The notes beneath the pieces were generated by a model. It searched no databases, had not been told where the DNA came from, and saw only the letters and a program-made list of their open reading frames with translations. Shown here piece after piece: positions 15,903-58,717 of a stretch of DNA of 64,000 bases. The stretch lies in NCBI RefSeq assembly GCF_964194155.1, contig NC_135888.1, positions 17,484,001 to 17,548,000 of the forward strand, read 5' to 3'. Numbering within the stretch: the stretch's first letter is position 1; each line of letters begins with the position of its first letter. The DNA is from Cetorhinus maximus. Its lineage: Eukaryota. A program made the translations under genes and the position numbers.

Positions 15903-15934
15903 ATGGCACAAAGAATGAGCATGAAATATCGCAG
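15903..15934 (+). CDS. ERICH3-like gene, putative start exon (MAQRMSMKYR+AG)
   Basis: ATG in frame to an AG|GTATGA donor, phase 2, matching the phase of the next exon. ERICH3 also has a short phase-2 first exon (recalled). Confidence 0.55.
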
Positions 15935-16355
15935 GTATGACATTGGTAAAAACATGTTACTAAATGAACCTATACAGTTAGGCCACCATATTACTTAATT
16001 GCATAAATATATATTATTTGAATTCAAATGCCTAAGGTTTATATAAGGAGGTGATTCTTTTTGTTGGTTCTAATTACACAATGGATGCACTAAATGTTAA
16101 ATTCCATCTTACAGCTTCCCAATGTATTAATGCTTCTGTGTGTCAGGAATATTTCTGTGCATGAACTAAATATGAGTTTGCGTTAAGTATGTACCTAGCC
16201 TCTCGAAATGCTGGGAATTTAACTGAATGAATGGATTTGTTCAACATAAGTTAAATATAAGTCTTATGTAGATTTGGTAGATATTTTATTTCCAATTAGT
16301 TTGTTGCCATGTAAATTTTCTATCTATTTCTGTCGTACAAGGAGCTCTATTTAAA

Positions 16356-16664
16356 TAAAAACAAAAAGCTAAAAGCTACTGCGGATGCTGGAAATCCAAA
16401 ACAAAAACAGAATTACCTGGAAAAACTCAGCAGGTCTGGCAGCATCGGTGGGGAAGAAATCAGTTAACGTTTCGAGTCTTCATGACCCTTCGGCAGAACT
16501 GAAGCATAGTTAGGAGAAAGGTGAAATATTTTTCACCTTTTACCTTTCTCCTAACTATGCTTCAGTTCTGCCGAAGGGTCATGAAGACTCGAAACGTTAA
16601 CTGATTTCTTCTCCACCGATGCTGCCAGACCTGCTGAGTTTTTCCAGGTAATTCTGTTTTTGTT
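16356..16664. mobile_element. Fold-back Penelope pLTR insertion with 14-bp TSD
   Basis: Near-perfect inverted arms of ~125 bp (~16400-16525 vs ~16540-16664); TSD GAGCTCTATTTAAA at 16342-16355 and 16665-16678. Confidence 0.85.
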
Positions 16665-17669
16665 GAGCTCTATTTAAAGTTGCCTGACACTGCTCTGCAA
16701 TGACATCCTGTCACCTTTCATTTCTGTTTCCTAGAATTTGTCCCTACCCTTCCAGTAGTTTTCACATCCTGAGCCCTTGTGCCCTCACATCCCCCCAACA
16801 CCCCCACTCCGCCCCACCCCCCCCACTCCCACAGACCCCCACACCACCCAGCAAATTATCCCTGGTCATAAAATGTAAGCAGGCAGCTTTCCCTATGGTC
16901 CTGCTGTGTCCAGGCCTCTTATAATTCAGCTGGTGAACTTACCCTCCAGTATACCCTCCAACTTTTGGGGAAGACCTGATGACTGCTAGCAGCATCACTG
17001 AGATTGGAAACTCACCGCTGCAGGTACTGAGGGTACAAATCCACACCCTATTAGGCTGTGTCACCTTTTGATGGTGCACCCACATTTCACACTAACACTT
17101 CACTCGAGTATTTCACTGCTTACAGCCCTTTTGGGGTAAACCTTTTCTTGACGATTTAGTTGGTTGTATTATCCTGACTCTGCTGTTGATCTCCTCTATA
17201 ACCATGCAAACACTTTGCTCTCTTTTAATTTACAATCATGCCTTCTCATTAGAAATACTCAATGGGTAACCAGCAAATGGCTTAGGTCATCCAAATGCAC
17301 CTATGGCAGGTTTCAATTGATGTTTCCTCCTTTCAATCTCCTCCATTCCTTGCCTGAAGGTGCTGACCAGCTAAGGTAGAGTTTCACAGGTGTCAACAGC
17401 CTGACAGCAGCTCACTCAGTGACCGTCGTCAATATATGAGTTGAGAAATTAAGTATTAATGGGTCATTTATCTGCAGAGAACATTAGAGCCAAACTCAAC
17501 ATGGAAGGATGGCAACACTTTCACATCCACTTTCTGTCCAAATCACACATCCCGACTTGGACATACATCACCATTCCTTCATTGTCACTGGGTCAGAATC
17601 CTGGAAGTCCCTAACAAAGCACTTGACCACACGGACTGCAGTGCTTCAATAAGATGGCTCACCAACTGT

Positions 17670-18085
17670 TGTCATTGTCGCTGTATCCCTCGAGTTTAGG
17701 ATGACGTCTACTCAGGGTCATGAGTTTCTGCCATGGGCCTTTATGTGACTGGACAGGCTGATTTTCAGCTTGCAGATCTTTGGGACCATGGGCAGGAAGT
17801 CCCATGAGGTAGAGGGATCCAGAGTGCAGGATTTACCCCCTTTTCTTTCCTTCTCTGCTGCCGCTCTGCCTCATCATTAAGACATTGGGACTCGAAGTGC
17901 GATGCAGTTTGATGGATAAGCTGTCAGCATTTTGAACGATTGGTAGCAAGCTCCTCCCAGTCATTAAGGTCAATGTCGCTGCACTTCAAGGAGAGCTTCA
18001 GCATGTCTTTGAAATGTATCCTTTGTCCTTGGCTGGAATGTTGGCCATTTGAGAGTTAAGAAAACAGGACTTGGTGGGGGATGAC
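17670..18085 (-). mobile_element. RTE-clade LINE 3' fragment inserted in a CR1-like tail
   Basis: Minus strand translates to roughly GQRIHFKDMLKLSLKCSDIDLNDWEELATNRSK, similar to the RTE ORF C-terminus (GGQRKRFKDxLKxxLK...WE..A.DR). The flanks continue one CR1-like tail. Confidence 0.7.
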
Positions 18086-19506
18086 CCATTAGGTCACCAC
18101 CACCTTCTCAAGGGCCATTCAGGATGGGCCATAAATGTTAACCCAGTGATATCCATTTCCCAAGAATGAGTATTAGTTATATTTATAGTGACGCCAGTTG
18201 CAATAATCCCTTGGCTCCCATGACAGGGGTTAGCTAACAGGACACAGATTGGGGGTCCATCTTTCTGTGCTCATTTTAATTGGGCTTTAGCTGGGGTTGG
18301 GAAAAGTAAACAAAAAATTCACTGGTTACAATGAGAGGTCTAGTCATTCATTATAACAGGGCTGGACTGCAGTTATTAACACAAATTTATTGTTGGGATG
18401 ATATCAGCATGCCTTTGGGAGAACTCGCTTTGTTTGACAGAACATGTTTGCATTTATTATTCAAAGGGATAAATTAGTCTGCCTAAAAATACAATGGCAG
18501 GTTCCTGGATTCCTGCCATTCAACAGAGTTTGATGTTTCAGATTTCCCCGAGTTGTGAAGCTGCCAGGAGACTAACACCTTCAGCTGTCAGTTAGAGTAT
18601 CAGGCTGCACTATTTCAAATTCCCATGAAACATGCATAGATGCACACTATTGTAACAGCATTTCAATAGGTTGCTCAATTATTTATTGTTAGTGCTTCTT
18701 GTATTTTATTTTTGATCCGATGAGTGCCTGATGCTCCCCAGCATCATGCTTAGCAGCTTCCAAACCAAATAACTGAGAAACCCACTTTAAATGGGAGTTT
18801 TCCTTTGCCTGTGCACTCTGCGACAGGCAATGTGAAATCTCGATTATATGGTAATGAGTTTCCATTCAGGCCAAATACCCTGACCACCAAGCAAAACACA
18901 CTTTGCATCTAGCTTCCTTCGTTTCAATTCTTTTATGAGCTTTCAGTTTTCCTGTGTCCTGTCTCTCCAATTGACTGTCTATCCATTCATTTACCTGCCC
19001 AACTAATTAAATACACAGGGTTAAGAGGAAAAGGATTGGCACTAAGTTAAAATGCTCAGAAAGCCAGTGCAGATATGATGGGCTGAATGGCCTCCTTCCA
19101 AACCATAACAATTCTGTGATTCTGTGATGATCAATGTGCGTATCTGTGTTTGTGTCTATCTGTCTATGTATGTTTGCAAGTATCCATCTATCTGTCTATG
19201 TATGTTTGCAAGTATCCATCTACCTGTCTATGTGTCCATGTGTATATTTATGGCTTCATATTATTTATCGATGCATGAGCATGTGAATGAGGTTATGTAA
19301 CAATGGAATGCACTACCTGATAGGATGGTGGATGCCAATTCAATGATAGGAGCCTTCAAAAAGAAATTGGATAAGTATTTGAAGAAGAATAAATTTCAGA
19401 AGTATGGGAAAAAGCAGTGGGGCTAATTGGATTGTTGAAGACACTGGTTTGAGACCGGAGTTGCTTGCCCGCAAACTGAATTTGAAATTCTACCATGTTG
19501 TGATTG

Positions 19507-21500
19507 CTACCCCCCGAGAGGATCCTTAACTACGATATCTCTTAATAATCCCACCTCATTACACATTACTAGATCTAAAATAGCTTGTTTCTGGGTAGGT
19601 TCTGCAATGTATTGCTCTAAGAAACAATCCCTGATACACCCTACAAATTCATCTTCCATGTTACCTCTGCCAATCTGATTTGGCCAGTCAATATGTAGAT
19701 TAAAATCACTCATGACAATTATGGCATCCTTCTTACATGCCTCAATTATTTCCCAATTTATACTTTGTCCTACAGTGAGGGGCTCTTCGGGGGCCTATAG
19801 ACTCCCACCCGGGACCTCTTCCCCTTACTATTCCTTATTTCCACCCAACTAATTCCACATCACAATCTATTGCACTTATATCACTAGTCACCACCACACT
19901 GATACCTTCCTTTATTAACAAAGCTACCCCACCTCCTTCTTCTTTTTGCCTATTTTTCTGTCGAATGTGAAATACCCTTGAATATTGAGTTCCCTGTCTT
20001 GGTTACCCTGCAACCACATCTCTGTAATAGCTATCAAGTCACATTCATTTATTTCTATTTGTGCTGTCAACTCATCTATCTTGTTACAAATGCTGCGTGC
20101 ATTCAGATAAAGAGCCTTAAGCGTTGACTTTTTACCATCATTACTCGTTCTAGTTCAACTTCCTGCTGCACTCTTCTGTTTATATTTTCTGCCCCATCCT
20201 GTCACACTTTGATTATCATTCGCCTCTTCACTTCCCTGCACCTCTGCTCTCTCGTTTCTTTTTGATTTTTTGAACCTTCCTTCAGTTGAACCCTCTCTCC
20301 CACTAATTAGTTTAAAGTCCGAACTACAACCCTAGTCATACGATTTGCCAGGACACTGGTCCCAGTATGGTTCAAATGAAGCCCATCCCAAAGAAACAGT
20401 TCTCTTCTTCTCAAGTAATGGTGCCAGTGCCCCATGAATTGGAACCCATTTCTCCCACACCAATCTTTGAGACACACATTTACCTCTCTAATCTTATTTA
20501 CCCAATGCCAATTTGCACGTGTCTCAGGTAGTTATCTGGAGATTATTACCTTTGTGGTTCTGCTTTTTAATTTAGCCCCGAGCTGCTCGTAGTCCCTCAG
20601 CAGAACCTCTTTCCTAGTTCTACCTATGTCATTGGTACCTACGTGGACCACGACAACTGGATCCTTCCCCTCCCACTCCAAGTTCCTCTCCAGCCCAGAA
20701 GAGATGTCCTTAACCTTGGCACCAGGTAGGCAACACAGCCTTCAGGACTCTCTGTCTTTGCTGCAGAGAACAGTATCTATTCCCCTAACTATGCTATCCC
20801 CCATTACTACTAAATTTCCTTTTTCTCCCCCCACTTGAATGGCACTCAGTACCACAGTGCTTTGGTCAGTTCGCTCATCCTCCCTGCAGTCTGTGTCCTT
20901 GTCCACACTGGGAGGAAGAACCTCATACCTATTGGACAAAGGCACTGACTGAAGGTCCTCCAAAGCTAAATTCTGGATCCCCATACCTGCCTCACTCACA
21001 GTCACACCCTCCAGTCCCTGACCACGGTCAAAATTTGATGTAATTAATCTAAGGGGTGTGACTGTCTCCTGAAACACAGTGTCCAGGTAACTCTCCCCCT
21101 CCCTAACGTCTTGCGGTGTCTGCAGCTCGGACTCCAATTCATCAACTCTGAGCCGAAGTTCCTCGAGCAGCCAACACTTGCCACAAATGTGGTCACCGTG
21201 GATCGCACCGGCATCCAACAGCTCCCACATACTGCAGTTGCAACAAATCACTTGCCCAGCCATTTCTATTCTATCTAATTAATTAATCTGGATGTTGAAT
21301 ATTTTAAAAGTGAATTTCTTAACTGTAATCTTCAGCTGTAAGAATGTCTCCTAGAGACACGGAAGAGATACATCCAATCACCTACCTGTTTTCCTTTGAT
21401 GTCACACTCTGGATCTGACAGGTAGAAACAGGTTGAAGGGGCTCTCTGCCACCGGTTTTTATCTCCTGCCGCCGCAGTCCTTCTCACGCAGGTCCGCTCT
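19507..21500 (-). mobile_element. CR1 LINE 5' half: 5'UTR, ORF1 (Zn-finger/coiled-coil/SGNH esterase) and start of ORF2 APE endonuclease; decayed and 3'-truncated
   Basis: ORF 21263-20742 MAGQVICCNCSMWE...ICGKC...LRVDELESEL...VVMGDSIVRGID; ORF 19713-19507 DFNLHIDW...FLEQYIAEPT...AILDLVMCNE. Confidence 0.92.
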
Positions 21501-22797
21501 CTGTTTCTGAACTCTCGGTTCTCCTCTAGCTGTTTTAAACTGAACTCCCGGCTCTCTCCTCTGGCTGTTTAAAACTGAATTTCTGGCTCTCTTCTCACTG
21601 TTTACAACTGATTTCCCGGCTCTCCTCTGGCTGTTTTAAACTGAACTCCCAGCTCTCTTCTCGCTGTTTTAAACTGAATTCCTGCCTCTCTCCTCGCTGT
21701 TTTAAACTGAATTCCTGCCTCTCTCCTCGCTGTTTTAAACTGAACTCCCGGCTCTCCTCACTATTTTAAACTGATCTCCCGACTCTCTCCTTGCTGTTTT
21801 AAACTGATCTCCTGACTCTCTCCTCGCTGTTTTAAACTGATCTCCTGACTCTCTCCTCGCTGTTTTAAACTGATCTCCCGACTCTCCTCGTTGTTTTAAA
21901 CTGATCTCCAGGCTCTCTCCTCGCTGTTTTAAACTGATCTCCCGGCTCTCCCCTCACTGTTTAAACTGATCTCCCGACTCTCCTTGTTGTTTTAAACTGA
22001 TCTCCCGGCTCTCCTCGTTGTTTTAAACTGATCTCCTGGCTCTCCTCGTTGTTTTAAACTGATCTCCCGGCTCTCCTCGTTGTTTTAAACTGATCTCCCG
22101 GCTCTCCTCGTTGTTTTAAACTGATCTCCTGACTCTCCCCTCACTGTTTTAAACTGATCTCCCGGCTCTCCTCACTGTTTTAAACTGATCTCCAGGCTCT
22201 CCTCGTTGTTTTAAACTGATCTCCCGGCTCTCCTCGTTGTTTTAAACTGATCTCCTGACTCTCCCCTCACTGTTTTAAACTGAACTCCCGGCTCTCCTCG
22301 TTGTTTTAAACTGATCTCCCGGCTCTCCTCGTTGTTTTAAACTGATCTCCCGGCTCTCCTCGTTGTTTTAAACTGATCTCCCGGCTCTCCTCGTTGTTTT
22401 AAACTGATCTCCCGGCTCTCCTCGTTGTTTTAAACTGATCTCCTGACTCTCCCCTCACTGTTTTAAACTGAACTCCCGGCTCTCCCCTGGCTGTTTTAAA
22501 CTGAACTCCCGGCTCTCCCCTCACTGTTTTAAACTGAACTCCCGGCTCTCTCCTCGTTGTTTTAAACTGATCTCCCGGCTCTCCTCGCTGTTTTAAACTG
22601 ATTTCCTGACTCTCCCCTCGCTGTTTTAAACTGATCTCCCGACTCTCCTCTCGCTGTTTTAAACTGATCTTCCGGCTCTCCCCTCGCTGTTTTAAACTGA
22701 TCTCCCGACTCTCCCCTCGCTGTTTTAAACTGATCTCCTGCTCTCTTCTCGCTGTTTTAAATTGAACTCCCAGCTCCCCTGCTGTTTTAAACTGTTT
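21500..22797 (-). repeat. Minisatellite, 29-31-bp unit (CTCTCCTCGYTGTTTTAAACTGATCTCCCGG), roughly 43 copies
   Basis: Direct reading; the invariant core GTTTTAAACTGA recurs every ~30 bp. Confidence 0.97.
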
Positions 22798-23324
22798 TGG
22801 CTGGTAGATGGAAACTACCCTGCCCTTGACCCCTCTGTGGGGCATGGAGTCTCCGGCTCTGGTGGCCTCCTGGCCTGCTGCAGGGAGGCCACTTCCACTG
22901 AGCAGACATCGTCTGCACACAGCAAGGGACCCACACCGCTGACAGCAAAATGCCAATGAGCCCCCAAAAATCCCCCTAACTCGGGCCTGATACATCTTAC
23001 TTGGCTGCCATCTCCAATCCTAGTCCCAGCCCACTCCTGGGAATGTTCCCCGGTGGTGGGAATGCATGAGAGGCCCATCCTGACATAGCGCTCACCCTTT
23101 TCCCTGCCCCCCCCACACCACCTCACCTCCAAGCCCGTCATCACTGGGCTAATTCAGCCCAATGTATCAAAATACATATATGTATCAGTTTTTCTATGCA
23201 TGTGTTTATCTTTACATGTATCTCTGTATGAACATATGTATCTATTTGTCTATGTATATTTTATTTCTATCTATTCTAGTTATGTATTTGCAGATTATTG
23301 TATCTGATTTGTCTATTTTTTTTA

Positions 23325-23657
23325 TTCATTCATGGGATGTGGGTGTCACCAGCTAGGCCAGCATTTATTGCCCATCTCTAACTGCCCTTGTTCAGACAGC
23401 ATTTTTAAGAGTCAACCACATTGCTGTGGGTCTGGAGTCACATATAGGCAAGACCAGCAGATTTCCTTCCCTAAAGGGCATTAGTGAATCAGACAGGTTT
23501 TCATGAATATCGTTTCATGGCTTTTAATTCCAGATTTTTATTGGCTTCAAGTTTCACCATCTGATGTGGTGGGATTCAAACCCGGGTCCCCAGAGAATTA
23601 CCCTGGGTCTCTGGAACACTAGTCCAGTGACAATACCACTATGCCACTACCTCCCCT
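23325..23657 (-). mobile_element. Full-length tRNA-derived SINE with CR1-like 3' tail
   Basis: On the minus strand: A-box-like GTGGCATAGTGG, B-box GGTTTGAATCCC, tail GGGCAGTTAGAGATGGGCAATAAATGCTGGCCTAGC. Confidence 0.8.
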
Positions 23658-24273
23658 TGTTTATATCTGTTTGTATCTATCTGTCTCTCTGTGAATGAAT
23701 TCATATATCTCTCTGGCTACAGAACAACCTTTCTGTACGCAGTTCAATATATCAAATATATAAACATGTTTTCTCATGGTCTCATTCCTCTGCATAAAGT
23801 GTCAATTGGTGCTACATTGGGGATATTTTATGCAGACTCTCTATGGACTGGTGTTCCACTGACCTTGTTATGCATCTTGTCATTACACTTTGCTTTTTAA
23901 AACGCTACTGTTGACACCAACAGGTCTATTGTCATTCCCACTTTACAACATTCAGTGTAAACAGTGAAAACTTACAGAATCAGTCACATAAGGGAGATGA
24001 GAATTTCCCTGAACCTGCTGACAGTCTAGGGATTAACATTTATTTTAAGAACAGATTAAAATTCAATCTTACCTACAAATTAGAGAAGCGGGCCTGTCAA
24101 ATGAACGAAGAATTTTTGTCCTGATCTCTAGAATTCTTTACTCTTTCATGGGGGCATGGGCATCCCTGGCAAGTCCAGCGTTTGTTGCCCATCCCTAATT
24201 GCCCTTCAACCAAGTGGCTTAGTATTTAGAGGGCAGTTAAGAGTCAACCACATTGATGTGGGTCTGAAGACAC

Positions 24274-24976
24274 GGGCAGAAATTTGCGCTGAGTGGACGG
24301 GCGCACTGCCGACCCGCTCGAGTGTAAAATGACGCGCGATGACATCAGGCGAGCGTTCCATCATCAATGGCCTTCCTTCCATCATAAGGTCAGAAGTGGG
24401 GGCGTTCGCTGATGATTGCACTCGCGCGATATTTCGGTTGGCGGGTGCGTGCAGGAGTTGGCAGCGCGCCTACTAACAATTAACAGGCCTATTAAGGCCA
24501 TTAAAGCTACAATTGAATGAAATTTTCCGCTGCCCATCCAACCTTACGGCTGGCGGGCAGGCGAAAAGGCCAAGCGGCCTTTGGATTTTTTAGGAAACCT
24601 CATCCGTGGGCGGATAAGGTTTCCCACAGCAATTAAAAATCGAATCAAATTTTTAAATTTCATTCATAACATGTCCCTGCTCATGCGACAGGGTCACATG
24701 AGGGGACATGCTTTTAACATTGGTAAGTTTATTATTTATGAGTTCACAAATCTTCAGCCCCTCTGAGGCAGCTCTGTGCCTCAGAGGGGCTGAAGATTTG
24801 TGAACTCATAAATAATAAACTTACCAATGTTAAAAGCACTGCGGCACGAGTTTCACGCTGGCTGGCCGTTAATTGGCCGGTCAGCGTGAAATCGATGTCG
24901 GGGCCCGATCGCGGGCGGCGGCCGGTTTCACGGCCGGTCCCGGGCCTGCCCGCCCGACAAGGGGAAAATCCTGCCG
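24274..24976. mobile_element. Harbinger-type MITE nested in a SINE (~24145-25110)
   Basis: TIRs GGGCAGAAATTT...AAAATCCTGCCG; 3-bp TSD CAC; the SINE resumes seamlessly at CACATGTAGGCCAGACC. Confidence 0.85.
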
Positions 24977-25214: not shown

Positions 25215-25305
25215 TCCACTGGACTCATATTACAGCCTTCGAGACAAACATCCTGATTATTTTGCTAAACCGATTCGGGAAAAACATCTCCACAGAGGAG
25301 ATAAG
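25215..25305 (+). CDS. ERICH3-like exon 2 (PLDSYYSLRDKHPDYFAKPIREKHLHRGDK)
   Basis: TTTGCAG acceptor, AAG|GTGAG donor, 91 nt, phase 2->0. Resembles the ERICH3 N-terminal YNSLxDKHLxGYF...RRHL motif. Confidence 0.85.
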
Positions 25306-27082: not shown

Positions 27083-27172
27083 AGAGAAAGAGTGAAAAAG
27101 AAGGACAGCTTTACCATCTCGCCATTCCCCTCGGCTTCAACATTATCGGAGATCTTCGCACCAACCAGGCTT
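27083..27172 (+). CDS. ERICH3-like exon 3 (RERVKKKDSFTISPFPSASTLSEIFAPTRL)
   Basis: TTCAG acceptor (an in-frame alternative exists at 27059), CTT|GTGAGT donor, 90 nt, phase 0-0, unique sequence. No homology support. Confidence 0.6.
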
Positions 27173-28156
27173 GTGAGTAATGCAACCTTTGGCTTCTTTT
27201 TAGTGAGGGTGATGGAGTGATAATGGGAGTGTGGTTCTCAATCTTCTGACACCAGCAGTCACCCTTTCATTGTGGCTTAAGAAATTAGACCAAATAAAGG
27301 CGCTAGCTCATCGCTGCCAGAATAAAGTAGGTGGGGGTGGTCTGAGGGGGCACTGGAGGCAGGAGGAATTCTGAGAGAAGATCACTCCAGATGTTTCTCT
27401 TGCAATTCACCCCTAACGTGGCGTTTACAAAGTTATCCACTGTCGTGGTCTAGGGTTACCAACTCAGAATGGAAACATTCCAGGAGGTTTCATCACATGA
27501 CCTCTAACTGCCCCACCCCATATTCTTGCTATTGGTCACTTGATGCGTCTATCCTCATGCCACATTGCATTCTCACACCAACTGGAAAGCGCACAGGCTT
27601 TGTGTTGCTTGACTGGAAGATACTTGACATCAGTCAAATGACTCTTTTCCCTATCTCTAAAAGACTTGCAAACAAAAACAAAAGTGTTCAAAAGAATTTT
27701 TTTAAAAACTTGTTATCCCTTTGCTCACACGCATGTCCAAGAAATTAAAATAGAGGGAATGTTGGTGATGGTTAGCAGCTGTATTTATTACCTAGATGGC
27801 TTTGGTCTGTTGGTACTTGCATACAGCCATTTAGACTCAGTACTTTCACCAAGTCTCAGTCCCCCGTACCAGAGCTGTAAGATGGTAAATGTCAATAGAT
27901 TTATTTACATTTTAAGTTGGAAAGTCTAGCATTACATCATATAATTCCAGGAACCATAACTCATGATCCCTATTCTTAGCCATCCTGTCAACGGCCTGCT
28001 CTTGGTGGGAATATAAGACCGGTTCGTCTCCGAGCTCTCACCTCAAATACAGACGGAGGAGGTGGATTTTTCTTATTAGAGGACTTAGATGTTTCTGACC
28101 TCTATCAGGTAACTTATCCAACATATTCTTTATATCATTAAAATATTCATTACCCA

Positions 28157-29272: not shown

Positions 29273-29548
29273 CTGGAGAACGAGACCCTTCACAAGTCGA
29301 GCACAGGCAATGGGCAGGAAAGTGAAAGGCACCTCCCTGCCATTCCCAACACGGGGATGCCTGTCCGACCAGCGTTGAACCTCAGCCTCCCACAATCTTC
29401 TGTACATCTTGCCAGAACGATCCACAACTGCACTTCATCTCGTCGGTTACACAGGCCACTAGGATTTTCAAGCAAGGCACCTGATTTAGCGATGGAGAGG
29501 ACGGGGAAGTTGTCTTCGATGGAACGAAACCGCTTCCGAAACAGAAAG
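29273..29548 (+). CDS. ERICH3-like exon 4 (LENETLHK...RNRFRNRK)
   Basis: TTGCAG acceptor, AAG|GTAGCA donor, 276 nt open, phase 0-0. Confidence 0.75.
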
Positions 29549-30900: not shown

Positions 30901-31096
30901 ATTCAGGTATCCAACCCTCCACAGAGGATTCTACGTGCAGCCAACCATTCCAATGTCTATATCACAATGCTGTACCTTGGGAGGGGGTTAAAGATTCCCG
31001 CTCAGAATACCGAACCTCGGGATGAACTAAAGGTTTTTCAGCAAATCTGTGGAGCGGAGAATATATGTGTATACAAAGGACATCTTACTCAGAGAG
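30901..31096 (+). CDS. ERICH3-like exon 5, DUF4590 N-half (SNVYITMLYLGRG...RDELKVFQQICGAENICVYKGHL)
   Basis: TTCTTTAG acceptor, GAG|GTAGG donor, 196 nt, phase 0->1. Matches recalled ERICH3 ITMIYLGK...RDEIKVYQQHCGGENLCVYKGKL. Confidence 0.92.
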
Positions 31097-33133: not shown

Positions 33134-33317
33134 AACAATTCCAGTTTGTCTCAAGGCGGCATTTTGGGTTTCCATTCAGTGCTACAATCTACGTCAATGG
33201 GATGGTAGCTGCACGCATCAGCTGGTGCTGTGAACACAGGTACCACGCCGGGTTCCAACAGGGCAAGCGAAGCTGCTTCCGTGTAATCCGAGTTAAAGGA
33301 GGAATACCCTGTTACAG
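33134..33317 (+). CDS. ERICH3-like exon 6, DUF4590 C-half (EQFQFVSRRHFGFPFSATIYVNGMVAARISWCCEHRYHAGFQQGKRSCFRVIRVKGGIPCYR)
   Basis: CCCAG acceptor, CAG|GTAGG donor, 184 nt, phase 1->2. Matches recalled ERICH3 ETFQFISRRHHGFPFSLTFFLNG...SSCCEYKH...PCYKC. Confidence 0.93.
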
Positions 33318-35744: not shown

Positions 35745-35854
35745 GTGTTTGATGGCTCAACAGTACCAAGACTATACAAGTAACCAAACGACAGAAGAAA
35801 TGGGCCCTGGAAGAAAAAGAGATTTAGACTTTGATGATGATAGTTCAGAAAATG
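35745..35854 (+). CDS. ERICH3-like exon 7 (CLMAQQYQ...DFDDDSSEN)
   Basis: AACAG acceptor, ATG|GTAAGG donor, 110 nt, phase 2->1; completes the PCYRC motif. Confidence 0.85.
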
Positions 35855-38782: not shown

Positions 38783-39502
38783 GACTGACGCCAAGGTCGG
38801 TGCTGGCAATGTCGGAGTACAGTTCACTCAGGAGCAATGGCGAATGTGAGACAGATGGCAAGATAACCATGAGTGATGGAACTTCTGGTAGCTCTGATCA
38901 TGAAATACTTAAATCAAAGGGAACTCCAGCCTGTTCGGGAGAGGACAGAAGCAACACCAACCTGTTGTATGGTGGAGTGCAGCAGAACATAAAACGGAAA
39001 GGTGGATGGACATTGAAGGTGAATAATGTTACGTCGAGTCTGGATTCTGATAGTGGAGATAGGAGGGGGAAAGAGGGGATTTCAATGAGAAAGACATTTA
39101 AGAAGAAGTCGTGTCCAAGAGCGGAGAGGGTCGATGACACTGAGTGCTGTAACCGGGCATCTGCCGGTAACGATGAAAATACTTCAAGGGAACTACTGGA
39201 AAAACAGGGAGGGCATTGGAAGAAGGTTTCTATAGGAGCAGATAAGGGTAACATTGATCAGGGAAGTGGGGACAGCCATGACTCTGACAGAGGCAGGAGT
39301 ATGAGGAAGAAGTCAAGAAAGAGGAAAGTAAGGAGAAGGGAAGCAAGCGAGGATGCTGAGGTAAAGGGTGAAAAATTTGTTGATCATGTGACTGAAGATG
39401 TTCGGCAGAAGGCACAGGAGAAAGAGAGAAGGCAGAAGAAAACAACTGACCTGGAAGATGGAGATGTGGTCTCTGTAACACAGAATGAAGCAGTGGAAGA
39501 TG
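38783..39502 (+). CDS. ERICH3-like exon 8 (720 nt, S/D/E/K/R-rich, disordered)
   Basis: TTTTCTTCCACAG acceptor, ATG|GTGAGT donor, phase 1-1, purine-rich open frame (ORF 38764-39510). Confidence 0.88.
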
Positions 39503-39614
39503 GTGAGTAATGAGAGTGTTATTTAATTTACTAATTATGTGTGGACCTACTGAAATCAGAGTGAAGAAGGCTGTCAGTGACCCTGCGATAGTGCAAAGAA
39601 GGGGAATCGGCAAC

Positions 39615-39756
39615 CGTTTTACATCTCTCCCTACTTTACATCTCTCCCCGTTTTACATCCCTCCCCAGTTTACATCTCTCCCCAGTTTACATCTCTCCCC
39701 GTTTTACATCTCTCACCGTTTTACGTCTCTCCCCAGTTTACATCTCTCCCCGTTTT
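39615..39756. repeat. ~19-bp tandem repeat (TTTACATCTCTCCC...), about 7 copies
   Basis: Direct reading. Confidence 0.85.
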
Positions 39757-40049
39757 TTTCTCATTGAAGTCAAAGTTTACAACAATCAGGTTACACTTGT
39801 GTCCACATTATTACCATAAATTATTTAATAGATGACACCGTGAAAATGTGTTTTCCTGGTGACAAAACAGGGAGCATGTGCAGTGCACATTTCAATCCAT
39901 TTTCCATCCAAAGTGAAAATGTGCACCTGACTGTTAACATTTTGTTTTAAGGTCCAGTTTTTCTCCTAATTTTTCCTTAAGACTGTTGCTGTGGTCCATT
40001 CCCACTGCAATATCTCTGTAGCATTCTTCACATGTCAGCTTAGACAGGG

Positions 40050-43988: not shown

Positions 43989-44345
43989 GTTTCCTGAGAA
44001 ATGAAGCTGAAATCCTTGACAACCATCCCAACAGCATTGAAGGAGAAATGCCAATTGTGCAAGATACAGAGAAGGTGCTTGGCAATGACAGCAAAGCACT
44101 GAATCCAATAATAAATAACGAAGAGACGTCAACGAAAGATAGACCCGATGTTGTGCAGCAATTATCGATCGACAAGGAGTCTGCAGACCTGAGATGGGAA
44201 GACGTGCTCAGTAGTGAACTAAAGGAAGAACACACAGAGGAGAACCTTCAAGGCAGCAACAGTGAAAATGAAAAGAGACTTGGTGAAAAGATGAACCAGC
44301 AACCTGAAACCCACCTTGACAAAGACAAGCGGCTCAATAAAGATA
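43989..44345 (+). CDS. ERICH3-like exon 9 (Glu/Asp-rich)
   Basis: TTGCCAG acceptor, ATA|GTAAGT donor, 357 nt, phase 1-1. Confidence 0.85.
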
Positions 44346-47587: not shown

Positions 47588-47911
47588 NNNNNNNNNNNNN
47601 NNNNNNNNNNNNNNNNNNNNNNNNNNNNNNNNNNNNNNNNNNNNNNNNNNNNNNNNNNNNNNNNNNNNNNNNNNNNNNNNNNNNNNNNNNNNNNNNNNNN
47701 NNNNNNNNNNNNNNNNNNNNNNNNNNNNNNNNNNNNNNNNNNNNNNNNNNNNNNNNNNNNNNNNNNNNNNNNNNNNNNNNNNNNNNNNNNNNNNNNNNNN
47801 NNNNNNNNNNNNNNNNNNNNNNNNNNNNNNNNNNNNNNNNNNNNNNNNNNNNNNNNNNNNNNNNNNNNNNNNNNNNNNNNNNNNNNNNNNNNNNNNNNNN
47901 NNNNNNNNNNN
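47588..47911. other. Assembly gap (324 N)
   Basis: Run of N. Confidence 1.
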
Positions 47912-48805: not shown

Positions 48806-48973
48806 TGGAGCTGGCTGCAAGGGTTCGCGAGAAACTGGCTTTGGCCCTTCAACGTGCAGAGTGTGCCTCGTCTGAAGCAGAGCTCAGTGACACCAGTGAG
48901 GCCAGCAGAAGCGAAGGCTGGCAGGAGAGTGAGGAAGGAGCAAAGGACCCAACACATGGACGACTAAGGATCG
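48806..48973 (+). CDS. ERICH3-like exon 10 (ELAARVREKLALALQRAECASSEAELSDTSE...)
   Basis: T-rich tract + AAG acceptor, TCG|GTAAGG donor, 168 nt, phase 1-1; helical protein-like translation. Confidence 0.8.
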
Positions 48974-50307: not shown

Positions 50308-51160
50308 GTGCTGAATTTTACCAGCGCTCTGGAGAGGCTGGGAGGCGGGAAGCCTAGTAAAATGGTGGTGGAAGGCGTTGGGGAGGGCTGCCCAATACGT
50401 TCCCACTGCCACAGGATATTACCGATGGCAGGAACGGAGGTGGGCAGCCAATTATCTCAATTAATTGATCAATTAATGGCTACTTCCTGCCCTGCTGGCA
50501 TTTTACCAGCATCAGGATGGGCCCTTGCCAGTGGGGAGACCACTTGGCATATCGAGGCAGCTTCCCAGACAGTTCCAGGGATGGGGGCGCCTACCTTTAC
50601 GGCTGCTGCATGGTCCACAGAAGTGCCCCCGCCCTCTCTCTTCCCCCCCCCACCCCCTTCCAGGTGGCTATGACCATCCCCACAGCTCCAACACCAGTTC
50701 ATCTCTCCAATCACCTGGTCCAGCCTCCCTGGCATTAAGTAAACTATCCTCAGCTGGTCTTCCAGGATGTCAAGTTAAGCTTGGGCCAAGATTCTAGATC
50801 TTTGTTTAAACTCGCTGGGAGGGATTTGTCTTTGGGCGTTAGTGTAAAACTTGTCTTTCTAGGCAAGGTGGCGGGGGTGGGGTGGTTCACAGAGCCAGGT
50901 GATGCTGTGGGGTATGAGCTTGTCGGGGTAAAATGCTGCGTATTCCTGTAGATGGTACATATCGCAGGCTCCATGGAGGCGCCCTCTTCTTCTCCCTGGG
51001 ACCTCAGCAGCGGCCACCTCCATCGCTGGCGGCCAAGGCTGTCGAGCTGCCGGCCCTCTGATTGGGCTGGCAGTTCTGAGAGGCAGGCCACCATCCTTAA
51101 TCGGACGCCGGTCCCAGCAGCAGTCTCTTAACTGGCTGCCGCTGGTAAAATCCCGCCCAG
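50308..51160. mobile_element. Harbinger-type MITE (second family) with nested ~270-bp repeat
   Basis: GTGCTGAATTTTACCAGC...GCTGGTAAAATCCCGCCC ends; 50730-50960 matches 53370-53545 inverted. Confidence 0.6.
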
Positions 51161-51309
51161 GGTCCTGCCAACCCGTCTGTGTGAGCTGAGGAGCACTTAT
51201 GGCCCCGACGGAGGGATTCCCCATCTTTTGGGCAAATTCGGCTCATAATTGGGGTTCAGGTTATCTATTCCCTCAAGAATTTTAATTAAATGCACACACG
51301 CACAGGTTA

Positions 51310-51650
51310 TTTCAGGGGTCGAGGCCTCAAATCCCATCACGGCAACTCTGGGGGGATTTAAATTCAATTGATTAAAAAAAGACTCTGGAATTGAAAACTA
51401 ATCGTAGTAGAAACTATCATCAATTGTCATAAAAATCCATCTTGTTCACTAATACTCTTTAGGGAAGGAAATCTGCTGTTATTACCTGGTCTGGCCTACA
51501 TGTGACTCTAGACCTACAGCAATGTGGTTAACTCTTAAATGCCCTCTGAAATGGCCTAGCAAACCACTCAGTTCAAGGTCAATTAGGGACAGGCAACAAA
51601 TACTGGCTTTGCCAGTGATGCTCACATCCCATGAAAGAATAAAAGAAAAT
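51310..51650 (+). mobile_element. tRNA-derived SINE with CR1-like tail
   Basis: AGGGAAGGAAATCTGC...GTGACTCTAGACCTACAGCAATGTGG core. Confidence 0.75.
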
Positions 51651-51959
51651 GCATGTCCGTCAATATGAGCAAACAGACACTTTTAAAACTCAAGTTTTGA
51701 TTTAATAGGCGGGCACTTTTTCTGTGTTTCCGTTGGTCTCTCAGCAATAATGTAATGACCAGGGGCAGATCATTGGTAGGAACCCATTAGACTCACACCA
51801 CCCATTCCCTCCCATCGCCCCTTTTCAAATCTGTTTTGGGTTTACCAGTAACAATTCTGGCAAAAGCCAGACAGGAAAAAAGAAAACTGGAAATTCAAAA
51901 CAGGATTTCCTCTCTGACTCAGAGCTGAACAGTTACTATTTATAAGGGTGGTACAGAAC

Positions 51960-52595
51960 CGAGAGTTTATAACCATCAGGAAAAACTGAACGGGCTAGGG
52001 CTCTTTTTCTCTAGAAAAGAGAAGACAAAGGGTGACTTAATCGAGGTCTTTAAAGTTATGTAAGGGTTTGATAGGGTAAAAGTAGAGATGAGTGAGACCA
52101 GAACTAGGGGTTATAAATCTAAGTTAGTAGCTGATAAACCCAATAGGCAATTGAGGAGATACTTCTTTACCCAGAGTTATGAGAAAATGGAACTGACTAC
52201 CTTAAGAACATAAGAACATAAGAAATAGGAGCAGGAGTAGGCCATTCGGCCCCTTGAGCCTGTTCTGCCATTCAGTAGGATCATGGCTGATCTTCTTGTG
52301 TTTCGATTTCCACATCCCCACCCACTCCTCGATAACCTTTGATTCACTTGCCTAGCAAGAATCTATCTACCTCTGCCTTAAAAATATTCAATGACCCCAC
52401 CCCCACCACCTTCTAAGGCAGAGAGTTCCAAAGTCGCACAACCCTCTGAGAGAAAAATTTCTCCTCATCTCTGTCCTTAAAGGTTGACCCCTAGTTTTAA
52501 AACAGTGCCCCCTATTTCTGGACTCACCCACAAGAGGGAAACATCCTTTCGACATCTGCCTTGTCAAGGCCGTTCAGGATCTTGTATACTTCAAA
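51960..52595. mobile_element. Two CR1 3' fragments tail-to-tail (+ 51960-52200; - 52205-52595)
   Basis: (AAGAACAT)n tail at ~52204-52222; CR1 ORF2 C-terminal motifs on both strands. Confidence 0.8.
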
Positions 52596-53804
52596 TAAGG
52601 AGCAGTAGTAGTGATCTGCCCAAGGGCAAGTCCTTTGTTCATTTCTCCATGGCTTACAGTCTTGTATTTCTTCTTCAGTTGCTTGCCTCCCAATCAGCCT
52701 CCCATTTTCAACTTCAATGAAAAACGAGCAATATGATTATGGATAAGAATACATGAGGTGATTTTCTATTGCTTTCCTCATGAGTGCTTGAAGGGAACAC
52801 AAGTCCTCTCCCCAAAGGGTCCTCTGCCGTTGTACCTCAAGGTCCTGGCTCTTCCCCCATCACCACCGAAAATTCATTGGTTCCACCATTGGTCATGACT
52901 CACAACCCTGAGCGTGGGACCCTTACCTGGGCCTTGGGGCACTTCACAAAAGGTTGGAGACACCCACCCCCTGAGGTCTCAAATGACCCTGCTACCCAAC
53001 CGCAAAGAGTAATGGAGGTGAAAAGATGCTGAGGTGAGGTGGAGGTGAATAGATGTAACTAAGGGGAAGCAGGGTAAGAGCATGAGGGTGAAAGAAATAG
53101 AAGGATATTTTGATAAGGTCAAATGAAGAGTGACAGGGTGAGGTTCATGTGGAGCATAAAACACTGGCATGGGCTAGTTGAGCCCAATGTCCTATTTCTG
53201 TGCTGGACATTTATTCTATGCAGTTCTATTTGCAGACCTCCCTTTTTAGATGACACATGGAGTCTCATAAAAAGAAATTAAATATATATACTAATGATTC
53301 AATCCTTAAATAATTTATGCAGATCGTGAAACAAACACCACTGAACTCAATTTCCATCCCCTCCATCACCAGCACTGTACCATCTACAGGGTCCATTGCA
53401 TTTTACACCAACAAGCTCATGCCCACCGCATCGCCTGGGTCTGTGTCACCAAGAAAGACAAGTTTTACAGTAAGCCCAGAGTCAAAATACTCCCAGCAAG
53501 TTTTTAAAAATCAGCTAGCCGGAATCTTAGACTAAGCTTAATTTAACACAAATGCTCCAAATTACTTTGGTTACAGGTTTCAGTGTGGAAGTTAAACAAA
53601 GCTGTCTGAATGGATTAAGTTGTGTAACTGACAGCTCTTTTTGTTCACTTTGAGTGGTCAGTTTTTCCCTAATTCTGCAAGTTTTATTTTATTGATTCAT
53701 TCCTGCGATAATGTTCGTGTGGAGCATAAACACAGACATGGACTAGTTGAGCCCAATGACCTGTTTCTGTGCTGCACATTCATTCTGTGCAGTTCTATTT
53801 GCAG

Positions 53805-55025
53805 AGCTGACTAGGTCAGTTTTTATTGCCCATCCCTAATTGCCCTTGAGAAGGTGGCTGTGAGCTGCCTTCTTGAACTGCTGCAGTCCATGTGGTGTAG
53901 GTACACCCACAGTGCTGTTAGGAAAGGAGTATCAGGATTTTGACCAAGCAACAGTGAAGGAACAGCGATATATTCCCAAGTTAGGATGGTGAGTGGCTTG
54001 GGGGGGGATCTTGCAGGTGGTGGTGTTCCCATGTGTCTGCTGCCCTTGTCCTTCTAGGAGGTAGAGCCTGTGGGTTTGGAAGGTGTTGTCAAAGAAGGCT
54101 TGCTAGTTGTTGCAGTGCATCTTGCAGATGGTGCACACTGCTGCCACTGTGCATTGGTGGTGAGGGAATGACTGTTGAAGGTGGTGGATGAGGTGACAAT
54201 CAAGTGGGCTGCTTTGTCCTGGATGGTGTTGAGCTTCATGTGTTGTTGGAGTTGTACACATCCTGGCAAGTGGAGAGTATTCCATTACAGTCCTGACTTG
54301 TGCCTTGTAGATGGTGGTCAGGCTTTGGGGAGTCAAGAGGTGAGTTCTCTCCACAGAATTCCTTGTCTCTGACCTGCTCCTATAACCACTATTTTTATAT
54401 GGCTGGTCCAGTTCCGTTTCTGATCAATGTTAACTCCCAGGACTGAATATTGAATTCAACAACTTTAGATCTTGAATTCCCTCCTCCATCCCCACCCCGT
54501 TTCCATTTCTTCCCCCTCCCTTTTGTTTTTTCCAATAATTTATATAGATTTTTCCTTTCCCACCTATTTCCATTATTTTTTAAATCTATACTTTTAATGC
54601 CCTGTTAGTCTTTCCACCCCACCTCCACTAGAGCTGTACCTTCAGTGTCCTGCCATCCATTCTTAATTAGCACATTCGTTTAGATAATATCACCACCTTC
54701 AACACCTCTTTGTTCCTTTGTCTGTGACATCTTTTGATTATCTGCTCCTATCACTGCTTGCTTGTCCCTACAACCACCCCCCCCACCCCCCTAACTTCTC
54801 TCCCCCCACCCTCCCACCTTAAACCAGCTTATATTTCACCCCTCTCCTAATATTACTCAATTCTGTTGAAGGGTCATGAGGACTCAAAACATCAACTCTT
54901 TTCTTCTCCGCCAATGCTGCCAGACCTGCTGAGTTTTTCCAGGTAATTCTGTTTTTGTTTTGTAACTCCCAGGATGTTGATCATGGGGGATTCAGCCTTG
55001 GTAACACCATTGAATGTCAAGTGCC
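53805..55025 (-). mobile_element. CR1-group LINE 3' part interrupted by a Penelope insertion (54443-54962)
   Basis: Colinear with 25990-26937; 12-bp TSD TAACTCCCAGGA at 54431-54442 and 54963-54974. Confidence 0.9.
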
Positions 55026-55310
55026 AGTGAAACTTTTCTGGGATATTTCTGGAGCTGTGCTGTTTGAACACAACATGGACAACAAGTATCAAACATTCGA
55101 TTGATGAGAGAATTCTATTGCAGGGGTCAGCAGTTAAACCAATGACACTGAAATCTGCATATAGTGGAGAAAGAAAGACATGCGTTCCTCTAGAGTGTTT
55201 CACAACCTAGGGACGTTTTAAAGTGCTCTACAGCCAAAGAAGTAATTTTGAAATGTAGTCACAGCTGTAATGCAGCAGCCAGTATGCACACAGCAATAAA
55301 CTGTAAGTGA

Positions 55311-55451
55311 AATAAAAGCAAAATACTGCAGATGCTGGAAATCTGAAATAAAAACAGGAAATGCTGGAAAAACTCAGCAGGTCTGACAGCATCTGCAGAG
55401 AGAGAGAGACAGAATTAACGTTTCGAGTCTGTATGACCCATCTTCAGAGCA
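55311..55451 (-). mobile_element. Penelope pLTR fragment with canonical hammerhead core
   Basis: Minus strand CTGAAGA-T-GGGTC-ATACA-GACTC-GAAACGTT; flanked by AAACTGTAAGTGA / AAACTATAAGTGA. Confidence 0.75.
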
Positions 55452-55494
55452 AAACTATAAGTGATGTTGATTGAGCAATAAATATCGGCCGGGC

Positions 55495-55795
55495 AGGCAA
55501 TGGTGTAGTGGTATTGTCGCTGGACTAGTGACCCGGGTTTGAACACGGCAGATGGTGGAATTTGAATTCAAAATAAAAATCTGGAATTAAAAGTCTAATG
55601 ATGACCTTGAAGCGATTGTTGCAAAAACCTATCTGGTTCACTCATGAGGAAATCTGCCATCCTTACCTGGTCTATGACTCCAGACCCACAGCAATGTGGT
55701 TGACTCTTAAATGCCCTCGGGGGGGCAGCAAGGGCAATAAATACTGGCCTAGCTAGTCATGCCCCCATCCCATGAATGAATACTAAAAAAAAAAG
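55495..55795 (+). mobile_element. tRNA-derived SINE with CR1-like tail
   Basis: TGGTGTAGTGG A-box; ends CCCATGAATGAATA(A)n. Confidence 0.75.
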
Positions 55796-55889
55796 AATAA
55801 CTCACCTACCATAATGGAATGCCAGTGTATATTTTGTGCTGGAGTGGGACTTGAACCCACAAACTCTCAGAGGTGAGAGTACTACTGTT

Positions 55890-56345
55890 TGTACTCAGCT
55901 GGCAGCACACTTGCCCCTGAATTACAGGGGTCCAGGTTCAAGTCTTACTCCAGGGCTTGAGCACAAGATCAAGGTTGACACTCCAGTGCAGTACTGAGGG
56001 AGTGCTATACCACCAGAGGTGCTGTCTTTTGGATGAGATGTCAAACCAAGGTCCCATCTGCCTGTTTGGGTGGATGCAAAAGGTCCCATGGCGCCATTCT
56101 GAAGAACAGCAGAGGAATTATCTTCCATGTCTTGGCCAATATTTATCCCTCAATCAACATCACACAAAAACAGAATATCTGGTTATTGCTGTTAATGGGA
56201 GCTTGCTGTGTGCAAATTGGCTGCTGCATTTCTTACATTATAACAGTGACTACACTTCTAAAAAGGTATTTCGTTGGCTGTAAATCACTTTGAGATGTCT
56301 GAGATCATGAAAAGCGCCATATAAATGCAAGTTTTTCTTTTTTTT
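55890..56345 (+). mobile_element. Full-length Deu-domain SINE
   Basis: Head through GAAAAGCGCCATATAAATGCAAG tail. Confidence 0.8.
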
Positions 56346-56701
56346 GCCAGCCTAAAACTTGTACCAGTCAGAATCAACTGGCACAAATCCCACAATATCC
56401 CCATTGTAAACATGATTTGGGAACCCTGGGCATCTTCAGCTAGCTCCCTGTGTAACTTGCAATCGAGACAGTTTCAAAAATCTAAGAGAAACACCAAGTC
56501 ACTTTAAAATTCCTGAGAGAGAAAGTCAGTTTGAAGACTCAAACGGATATTTTAGAGTGAAACAGGCTCCTGTTGCGTTTAGAAACATAAGCAAATAAGG
56601 GCTGTGCATATGGAAGTATTCTACAATGGAGTAGATTGCAACCTTTTATTGTCTTTACTTCGAGAAATTGTGTCGAATAATTTCAATTGTAACTATATAT
56701 A

Positions 56702-57090
56702 CAGGGTGTTTATAAAGTCTCTTTGCAACTTCAACCTTCAATAACTTTGGATTTACACATGATAGAACTAACCCTTATAAGACATGCTTCAAAGGCATGA
56801 AAGCGTGGTTCATACAAATTAATTAATGTTATTTTGCTTGCTAATGCTGTGTTGGTGTTCACGAAATTATTCAGCAGCAACCACAGAATGTTTTCATTGA
56901 GTTGGAAAATTGGAATGAATGATGTATCACAAAAGAAGCTGGTTATACTGAAGCCTAGAAAGTTGACTTGTATTTTGTTAAAACTTTATGAATTATGCTT
57001 TCATATGCTGTATACAGTTTGTTTCTAACGTATGCACATCCAAAGTTATTAAAGTTTAAAGTTGCGCAAGGACTTTATAAGATATTTAGG
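56702..57090. mobile_element. Tc1/mariner-type MITE
   Basis: TA|CAGGGTGT start; ~45-bp imperfect TIR (TTATAAAGTC...AATAACTTTGGAT vs ATCCAAAGTTATT...GACTTTATAA). Confidence 0.7.
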
Positions 57091-57992
57091 CTATATAAGA
57101 TGTTTATGTAGCCTCTGTATTGTAACTGTATTAGAATCACTATTAGTAATTCAAATGTAAAATACGTTTGGTCAATAATGTAAACTTAAAAACCATAGTC
57201 TAATGTGACACCCTATTCTTCACTGAAGATTAGAGAGAAGTTCCGTGGAGGCATAACATAATTTCATAATTACTGAGAGCAATTAACAGAAATGTTATTC
57301 TGCCCAACGCTCACTTAGATTCTAAGGTTAATAAAAATATTTGCAATGTAATAGGGAGTTGAGAGAGTGTGATCCAAATTATGAGGTACGAATGTTTGGA
57401 GTAAGAAGGACAGAAAAGAACATAATATGTATCATCCAAGCATACGGACTAGAAAGATGCCACCTGCCATCCCTCTGCTAGATTGGTTGGAGTGGAGATG
57501 AGATTCTATTATTTGCCTCAGTGCAGCTGGAGAAGGCAGGAGATGAAAAAAGCAGCCAGCGTCCCCACCTGTGATTGGCGTAGTGAGTTCTGTTGGATAA
57601 TGTGCACATGTGGAGACTGGGTAAGGTCAGGATCATGGATGTATTGTAAGCCAACACTTTCCAGCTCACAGGATAAGAGTGGCTTATTAGTTGTGGTGCT
57701 TAACAGCTGCTGGCATCAGTGGAACAGTCTCACAGCCCGAATCATTGTCTTTAATCAGGTGGGTGTTGGGGAGGGGTAGAGCAATATTGTAGGCAGAGGG
57801 GGTGGGAGGAGAAATTTGAAAAAGAAATGGCCATTAGTACCTTAGGAAATCTGCTCTGTAAGTTCAGGTGACCACATTCTTCCATGAGTTGGGATTGATG
57901 TTAACTTCCCTCTTGTATAATTGGTCATACCATCACAGTAAGTCTGTATCAATAATGCTAGGAACACTAATTCCGTATCATAACTTTTGCAG

Positions 57993-58717
57993 ATGAAAAA
58001 GTAGATGAGATTGAACAACTCTCACCCAATGAACTGATGAAAAGCAAGGATCCTGTTTACACTGATGCTGCTTCGTTGGCTGGACAGAAGGACGATGGGG
58101 TGAAACTAAGCTGTGTCTCGGTACTGCCAATGAAAACAAAGGTCTGCAATCCTACAAATCCGCACCCTGTACAAACTGCAGGGAGTCTATCAGAAACTAA
58201 CTCACACCAATGGGATGTTGTAGCCTTGTCTTCCACCAACTGTTTGAAAGAAGGCTGTGAGCCTTGTCACTTTTCAGGCAACAGGTCCGAAGTAATGAGG
58301 AATGATGACACCCGAGGGGAAACATTTCCAAAACAGAAACTTAAAGGCCTTGCAAAAATCGATGAGCAGCACCCTCTACAGATGCCACTGGAAATGTTTG
58401 CAAATCCATCCGGTGTAATCAAACACAAAGAAAGTGAAGACAAACAGACGTCACCTAGCAAGAAGCCCAATTTCCAGCTACTTGACAAATTAACTCCCAC
58501 CAATGGCCCAGACAGGGAGCGTCTGCCTACGCAATGCAACGTGGAATCCTGGGATGGCCACACAAGTTCTAAAGCAGGAACATGTAAGGCTGAAGGTGAA
58601 AGCACAGGCACTGAGCAGCTCCTGGCAAAACCAACACCAGAAAATAAGGAGGAAGATGAGACCACGCTAATTGTCAGCCCATGGGGTCAATACGCAGCAG
58701 GCACATTGAGAAAACAA
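57993..58717 (+). CDS. ERICH3-like exon 11 (725 nt; gene continues, 3' end unresolved)
   Basis: CTTTTGCAG acceptor, phase 1, in frame with ORF 58037; likely donor CAA|GTAATG. Beyond it the ORF-track frame runs into AT-rich and Penelope sequence. Confidence 0.8.

Follow-up and report, generated by a model that had tools for sequence, protein, structure and literature searches.

ERICH3 (C1orf173) is the closest described relative of the gene reported here. Published reports place human ERICH3 along primary cilia and, in abundance, in airway motile cilia, and describe it as required for normal retrograde sorting related to intraflagellar transport (IFT) (PMC6848114). They also give ERICH3 among the targets of ciliary transcription factors (PMC11317154) and zebrafish erich3 among the most downregulated genes in inner-ear supporting cells (PMC6813431). 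We analysed a 64,000-nt stretch of the genome of the shark Cetorhinus maximus (contig NC_135888.1, positions 17,484,001–17,548,000, forward strand; hereafter the window), and found that it carries most of an intact sister gene of ERICH3. We propose that this paralog arose by duplication in an early vertebrate, split the ends of an ancestral protein with ERICH3, and encodes a ciliary adaptor, an explanation that we hold as a whole at a probability of roughly 70%. That the origin and the partition of domains, taken as one claim, are as described here we regard as highly probable.

The paralog resembles vertebrate ERICH3 in its DUF4590 core, which is ~50% identical to that of the ERICH3 gene on contig C18 of the same genome, and in its exon phases, the short motifs upstream of the core, and a long, charged, disordered region. 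It differs in the absence of a two-exon N-terminal segment, in the erosion of its YxSLxDKH motif and in a tail less rich in glutamate (10.8% versus 18.5–24.9%). It also ends in a leucine-rich repeat (LRR) domain, which is present in 0 of the 120 ERICH3 records listed (75 of them at least 1200 residues long), and it sits on a different contig among different neighbours, with no amniote record found. A second set of relatives, the invertebrate ERICH3-like proteins of Oscarella, Lineus, Tubulanus, Patella, Haliotis, Mizuhopecten and Littorina, on which we found no study, share with the paralog DUF4590, a spacer and a collinear C-terminal LRR of the ribonuclease inhibitor (RI) type, but retain the N-terminal motif and segment.

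The window gene is not the sole DUF4590 gene of its genome, and it falls outside the ERICH3 clade. The Pfam DUF4590 model (PF15257) picked out two loci among 15 candidates scored, the C18 gene (114.7 bits) and the window (73.2 bits, from exon 7 alone); the latter score lies above the curated cut-off and bears out the family membership proposed in an initial annotation of the window, while full-core orthologs of the paralog reach 111–122 bits. A record named glutamate-rich protein 3 matches the DUF4590 exon on C18 at 100% identity, and a search with this exon retrieves 219 proteins, of which the 120 listed are mostly named ERICH3 and many come from amniotes. A spliced TYW3, the neighbour of ERICH3 on human 1p31, lies 0.35 Mb from the C18 gene. 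This linkage was not found for the window gene, which sits between B3GALT9 and PSMD5, both found flanking it as first proposed. An intronless TYW3 match with four stops (G000:C14:88061378-88061839) is probably a processed pseudogene. A phylogeny of the DUF4590 core was built from 44 of 53 rows over 128 columns, leaving out nine (a truncated core from sturgeon and 8 others). In it, the paralog forms a clade of 17 rows (support 100/99) and ERICH3 another of 17 rows (93/94). The window gene lies in the former and the C18 gene in the latter, and sharks, ray-finned fish and amphibians are represented in each.

The exon phases of the two genes were also compared. Nine consecutive exons of the C18 gene, compared with the last two ERICH3 exons left out, have phases 2-0, 0-0, 0-0, 0-0, 0-0, 0-0, 0-1, 1-2 and 2-1, and exons 2–8 of the window gene have phases 2-0, 0-0, 0-0, 0-0, 0-1, 1-2 and 2-1. 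The series correspond one to one save for two phase 0-0 ERICH3 exons of 126 and 72 nt, which are absent from the window gene and encode the N-terminal segment after the YxSLxDKH motif. No remnant of either exon was found in the stretch of C10, the contig of the window. The absence of this segment, which the initial annotation termed the ERICH3 "coiled-coil" after exon 2, is borne out.

The initial annotation had joined 11 exons into one gene. We located all 11 at the sizes given; on the plus strand they join into 2949 nt (983 codons) with 0 stops and GT-AG ends at all introns, and when window pieces of the same sizes were joined at random, the frame stayed open in 0 of 20,000 trials. That model was real but incomplete: a 129-nt exon (exon 4) had been missed, and extension past the window, which had been advised for the C-terminus, yielded two further exons encoding an RI-type LRR domain. 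The full model has 14 exons, 12 of them within the window, and encodes 1302 residues (Table 1). It ends at G000:C10:17554931, ~7 kb before PSMD5, which is on the opposite strand, and an AATAAA lies ~475 nt 3' of its stop. Every one of the 14 exons is matched by at least one other cartilaginous-fish protein record, exon 1 most weakly. Exon 2 scores only 10.8 bits against the ERICH3 motif profile and matches a Heptranchias record at 21 of 30 residues; exon 4 is identical to two shark records at 31/32 and 33/38 aligned residues and to a skate record at 27/36. The single N stretch of the window (47588-47911) is intronic, falling between exons 10 and 11. DNA contigs from a single sample, which may not be independent of the assembly, cover exons 2–9 and carry no stop. 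Logan-derived matches were considered as spliced products and rejected, as they turned out to be single-exon genomic open reading frames (ORFs), and a possible RNA run of 11 Mb consists mainly of repeats, shows no exon joints and is evidence neither way. Within an intron, at window positions 39816-39884 (+), a match at 70% to 23 residues of a Stegostoma record may mark an alternative exon, or one specific to a lineage, with no clear splice ends.

The partition of domains emerges from comparison with invertebrate proteins. From a profile search of 1.84 billion representatives, ten of the long proteins that matched the paralog at both ends were looked up (from a sponge, two nemerteans and six molluscs, with one further record), a sample biased to LRR-bearing proteins, since the LRR was part of the search profile. 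All ten non-vertebrate-type proteins have DUF4590 and the LRR, and in 7/10 the N-terminal motif and segment are present as well; one of these seven, a sponge ORF annotated as complete, holds motif, segment, DUF4590 and LRR in one protein. The N-terminal segment is present in 93 of the 120 ERICH3 records and in 0 of 114 ortholog records of the paralog, which were listed, with 6 unrelated LRR proteins, among 120 of the 121 matches of an axolotl LRR search. Invertebrate and paralog LRRs are collinear and share the position of a variable insertion. A profile built from invertebrate LRRs only scores the window protein at 199.5 bits, with almost all of the profile aligned, against 112 for the best unrelated LRR and at most 6 for the 120 ERICH3 records. 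When compared with the shark genome, the N-terminal half of a snail protein matches C18 with its motif, its segment and its core, and C10 with its core alone. A mussel LRR finds exon 14 on C10 as its best match (E 3e-21) and, weakly, exon 13 and two other contigs, with no C18 match among 65 candidates; no LRR remnant was found in the 120 kb searched around ERICH3 on C18. The simplest reading is one four-part ancestral gene with complementary losses after duplication, the order of which we infer.

Three further observations concern the architecture of the family. An SExELS-type motif expression is matched by 100 of 133 paralog proteins, 12 of the 120 ERICH3 records listed and 0 of 10 invertebrate proteins. 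One divergent non-vertebrate record (P0255, 837 aa, ENA) joins DUF4590 and LRR without the N-terminal motif and segment, perhaps through independent loss or a truncated gene call. An ERICH3-type record of Scleropages (P0219) seemingly contains two tandem units of N-terminal region and DUF4590, either a duplication or fused models.

An AlphaFold2 model of a frog ortholog, built with 114 sequences (predicted TM score 0.56), consists of two ordered islands separated by a low-confidence spacer that is probably disordered. The C-terminal island is predicted to be an RI-type LRR solenoid with local confidence (pLDDT) mostly >90, matching ribonuclease inhibitor and NOD2 at ~E 1e-12, and Pfam PF13516 (LRR_6) is above cut-off in orthologs. 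The solenoid shares its repeat class, by sequence and fold, with ciliary RI-type LRR proteins (LRRC34, DRC5/TCTE1, RSP15, trypanosome doublet LRR proteins and LRRC73), but this similarity is generic, at 15–26% identity in the fold matches. The top Atlas cluster is automatically named LRRC73 (0.96, with unrelated LRR clusters at 0.95); this possible link comes from the cluster name, and the cluster may consist of LRR-only records of the paralog itself. LRRC73, a possibly similar LRR protein, is placed in motile cilia by a preprint (bioRxiv 10.1101/2025.03.18.643967).

The core, modelled from a bichir ortholog, is predicted to form a seven-strand beta-rich domain with a trailing helix. In a wide fold aligner, ~44 of the top 50 rows are C2 or C2-containing chains, as assigned from titles and domain positions. 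The predicted beta-sandwich resembles C2 domains of the CEP120, AIDA, CC2D1B, DOCK and PI3K types over ~95–105 residues (Z 6–7.4), but shares 3–14% identity with them and, unlike them, has four conserved cysteines. Three of these are invariant in 79/79 aligned sequences and the fourth is present in 74 of the 75 that reach its position, and they possibly form a zinc site. Foldseek gave no match to the core at E 0.001 (best E 0.003, weak rows), and searches of the PDB by sequence gave 0 matches, whether ERICH3 or the skate paralog was the query. The resemblance of the DUF4590 fold to C2 domains is a weak lead and no proof. The core is basic (17 K+R versus 6 D+E), which is only suggestive of lipid or calcium binding.

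Because human ERICH3 is ciliary and related to IFT, the paralog is predicted by analogy to be a two-headed ciliary adaptor, a role that we somewhat favour. The basic C2-like sandwich of DUF4590 would attach to the membrane of the cilium or to a partner associated with that membrane, reach would come from the disordered spacer, and the LRR solenoid would bind an axonemal or transport protein, a contact that vertebrate ERICH3 would have abandoned. More tentatively, ancestral ERICH3 may have been a four-part ciliary linker (motif, helical segment, cysteine-bearing C2-type domain and LRR) that was split by a vertebrate genome duplication into two complementary proteins, with the LRR copy lost in amniotes and DUF4590 representing an unrecognised ciliary C2-like family. 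On that reading, the cilia of fishes and amphibians would have a component built on an LRR that is missing from human cilia. The same gene with the same origin could instead have taken up a non-ciliary job after losing its segment, such as that of a cytoplasmic LRR protein in germ cells or of an immune type. The eroded N-terminal motif would fit such a change, as would the DUF4590 stem branch of the paralog, which is longer than that of ERICH3 (0.52 versus 0.27), and the presence of NOD2, ribonuclease inhibitor and NLRP proteins beside axonemal chains among the top fold matches of the LRR. We nevertheless consider this unlikely: Pfam scans of nine orthologs found no NACHT or other immune domain, which sets the paralog apart from NLR immune receptors, the LRR is inherited from ancestral ERICH3 rather than gained, and its three best PDB sequence matches, generic as they are, come from flagellar doublet structures. 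An RFX X-box-type pattern has 69 matches against 90 expected and therefore lends no promoter support.

Several points count against the ciliary paralog as we reconstruct it. The invertebrate sample carries the bias noted above, and rotifer-dominated ESM Atlas clusters show a third architecture, with DUF4590 and PLAT paired in 95% of 57 members. The best C2 match of the core reaches Z 7.4 (root mean square deviation 3.0 A, 104 aligned residues), with identities of 3–14% across the C2 matches, and Z scores of this size denote a common arrangement in the tool's own grading. The literature covered reports neither expression nor localisation of the paralog, and no RNA support for any junction emerged in this species. 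The amniote search covered proteins of 356–1136 aa with exact shared words and the top 150 of a profile search. Further difficulties arise from the trees and from the public records, and these are weighed below with the alternatives on which they bear.

With regard to the age of the duplication, the core tree joins the paralog and ERICH3 clades (98/94) apart from the invertebrates (protostomes and sponge), and an approximately unbiased (AU) test on 30 rows rejected a duplication within cartilaginous fish only (p 0.001). The Miga, Noelin-1 and Pannexin_like (LRRC8) families, picked from human 1p/9q pairs and lying 2–13 Mb away, have loci on both C10 and C18 in 3/3 cases tested, and two of them also on C29. 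These pairings agree with the initial annotation, which had proposed an ohnolog from the chr1/chr9 paralogon, and a whole-genome duplication in early vertebrates is the likely cause of the pair. A duplication that was older, or merely segmental, with its copies on paralogous chromosomes by chance, would be compatible with some of these results. A grouping of ERICH3 with protostomes, as expected from an older event, was not rejected with the core alone (AU p 0.257), the alignment has only 128 columns, no amphioxus, tunicate or cyclostome rows provide a chordate outgroup, and the marker families are just three and distant. This alternative is nonetheless improbable, given the support for uniting both vertebrate clades in the best tree, the consistent pairing of C10 with C18, the placement of the B3GALT9 region in a two-round (2R) paralogon by PMC8022947, and the occurrence of both ends in one gene in the seven invertebrate-type proteins described above.

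The locus is not as hidden as the initial annotation supposed, since a public 924-aa record of it exists; that record, however, is without the DUF4590 half. It is identical to model residues 379–1302 and therefore agrees on the last five junctions. It could be taken, together with the 22 of the 114 listed ortholog records that have the LRR only and with separate records for the two halves, on contigs of equal length, in the tailed frog Ascaphus, to mean that a short DUF4590 gene and an adjacent LRR gene have been joined by prediction alone. We find this very improbable, because the other 92 records listed hold both domains, the frame is open across 14 exons with canonical ends, the exon that contains Met379 has a good acceptor and starts ~10 codons before it, and invertebrate records, including the sponge ORF, join both domains. 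A decaying pseudogene copy of ERICH3, to which the eroded motif and the incomplete annotation of the locus might point, is extremely improbable in view of 0 stops in 1302 codons, an identity between sharks of 73–94% in domain exons versus 44–65% in long spacer exons, retention from chimaera to frogs, and three coding differences in the DNA contigs of which two are missense and one is silent.

Orthologs of the paralog occur in chimaera, sharks, skate, bichir, sturgeon, gar, bowfin, many teleosts, coelacanth, salamanders and frogs. The initial annotation had the gene kept in sharks and lost or unannotated in mammals; no mammal record was indeed found, but the gene is also present in bony fishes and amphibians, and its absence spans all amniotes sampled. 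None of the 114 orthologs listed from the axolotl search is from an amniote. A ferret-labelled row has the same sequence as a tilapia record and falls in a cichlid cluster, and was treated as a mislabel. In an LRR tree with 38 vertebrate-type rows, the 28 named or window rows are all non-amniote, and the 10 without a label are nested among ray-finned fish. Because the searches were limited by length and rank and covered protein records rather than amniote genome intervals, we only infer a loss in the amniote ancestor.

The gene is already in databases under automatic or wrong names. Ortholog entries such as zebrafish XP_021332033.2, Xenopus laevis XP_041430887.1 and gar XP_015222343.1 belong to a set named automatically "glutamate-rich protein 3-like", "glutamate rich 3-like" or "uncharacterized LOC...", and others are called glutamate-rich protein 3, NOD1, NLRC3-like, NLRC5, LRRC73-like or LRRC74B. 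Some Xenopus, gar and teleost records named glutamate-rich protein 3 are therefore the paralog, which matters for loss-of-function work in those animals. A literature survey outside subscription papers, judged mostly from listings, turned up no publication on the paralog, its LRR or the DUF4590 fold, although supplementary gene lists, those of the bioRxiv cilia map included, may carry the orthologs under LOC names; PMC10299642, PMC8207762 and the supplements of PMC13069148 gave nothing relevant. What is new here is the full model, the paralog status, the partition of domains with ERICH3, the apparent amniote loss and the lead on the DUF4590 fold. The pair offers a clean case of domain-level subfunctionalisation after genome duplication, seen exon by exon in one genome. 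The poorly understood human gene ERICH3 gains an evolutionary and structural frame, with an LRR as partner domain in its ancestor and a predicted C2-like fold for DUF4590, and the annotation of the locus is corrected by the first 378 residues missing from the public record.

Table 1. Exons of the ERICH3 paralog and of its upstream neighbour (window positions unless a contig is given)
Feature	Position	Strand	Length	Phase	Content
Exon 1	15903..15934	+	32 nt	0 to 2	start codon; 7/11 residues match start of Stegostoma record
Exon 2	25215..25305	+	91 nt	2-0	eroded YxSLxDKH motif; counterpart is 94-nt phase 2-0 ERICH3 exon
Exon 3	27083..27172	+	90 nt	0-0	23/30 residues match Heptranchias record
Exon 4	27980..28108	+	129 nt	0-0	in frame; RPVRL motif in common with matching ERICH3 exon
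Exon 5	29273..29548	+	276 nt	0-0	
Exon 6	30901..31096	+	196 nt	0-1	DUF4590, first half
Exon 7	33134..33317	+	184 nt	1-2	DUF4590, second half, with CC and PC cysteines; PF15257 73.2 bits
Exon 8	35745..35854	+	110 nt	2-1	end of DUF4590, start of spacer
Exon 9	38783..39502	+	720 nt		charged low-complexity spacer; contains Met379
Exon 10	43989..44345	+	357 nt		spacer
Exon 11	48806..48973	+	168 nt		short helix and conserved SExELS-type motif
Exon 12	57993..58717	+	725 nt		spacer as far as LRR
Intron 12	58718..64000	+			continues beyond window end
Exon 13	G000:C10:17550114-17550340	+	227 nt		outside window; LRR domain
Exon 14	G000:C10:17554328-17554931	+	604 nt incl. stop		outside window; LRR domain
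B3GALT9 main coding exon	5320..6426	+			upstream neighbour; Pfam Galactosyl_T E 2e-40; 86% to Heptranchias record

The upstream neighbour bears the name B3GALT9 both in the initial annotation and in PMC8022947, which describes synteny conserved across b3gnt10/B3GALT9-psmd5-phf19-traf1-c5 and treats B3GALT9 and B3GALT4 as ohnologs; "erich3" is absent from the four supplements of that paper. A Heptranchias record (P0001) has B3GALT9 fused to the paralog with exon 6 missing, probably a prediction artefact, and shows the adjacency of the two genes in another shark. A scan of the flanking DNA with FBXW2 and PHF19 motifs gave nothing usable. The large ORF of B3GALT9 has no in-frame ATG at its start. 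An upstream ATG CAG (window 3394-3399) followed by GTAAG, with an acceptor at 5318-5319, gives MQLIFCRLR, which matches the B3GALT9 starts of other species. In PMC8022947, no start codon was found for human B3GALT9, which is called a likely pseudogene; a two-codon first coding exon might explain the missing human start. A 10-nt word precedes the start codons of both B3GALT9 and the paralog, with no wider similarity around it (score 64 versus 59 ± 9).

Downstream of the paralog, 1.8 kb past its stop, lies a partial copy of exon 14 of ~35 codons (G000:C10 ~17556674-17556787, locus L016), 76–88% identical to shark orthologs and flanked by repeat-like sequences. Tandem arrays occur in the window at 21507-22794 (33-bp unit x40), 486-996 (91–93-bp units) and 39614-39756 (17-bp unit x8).

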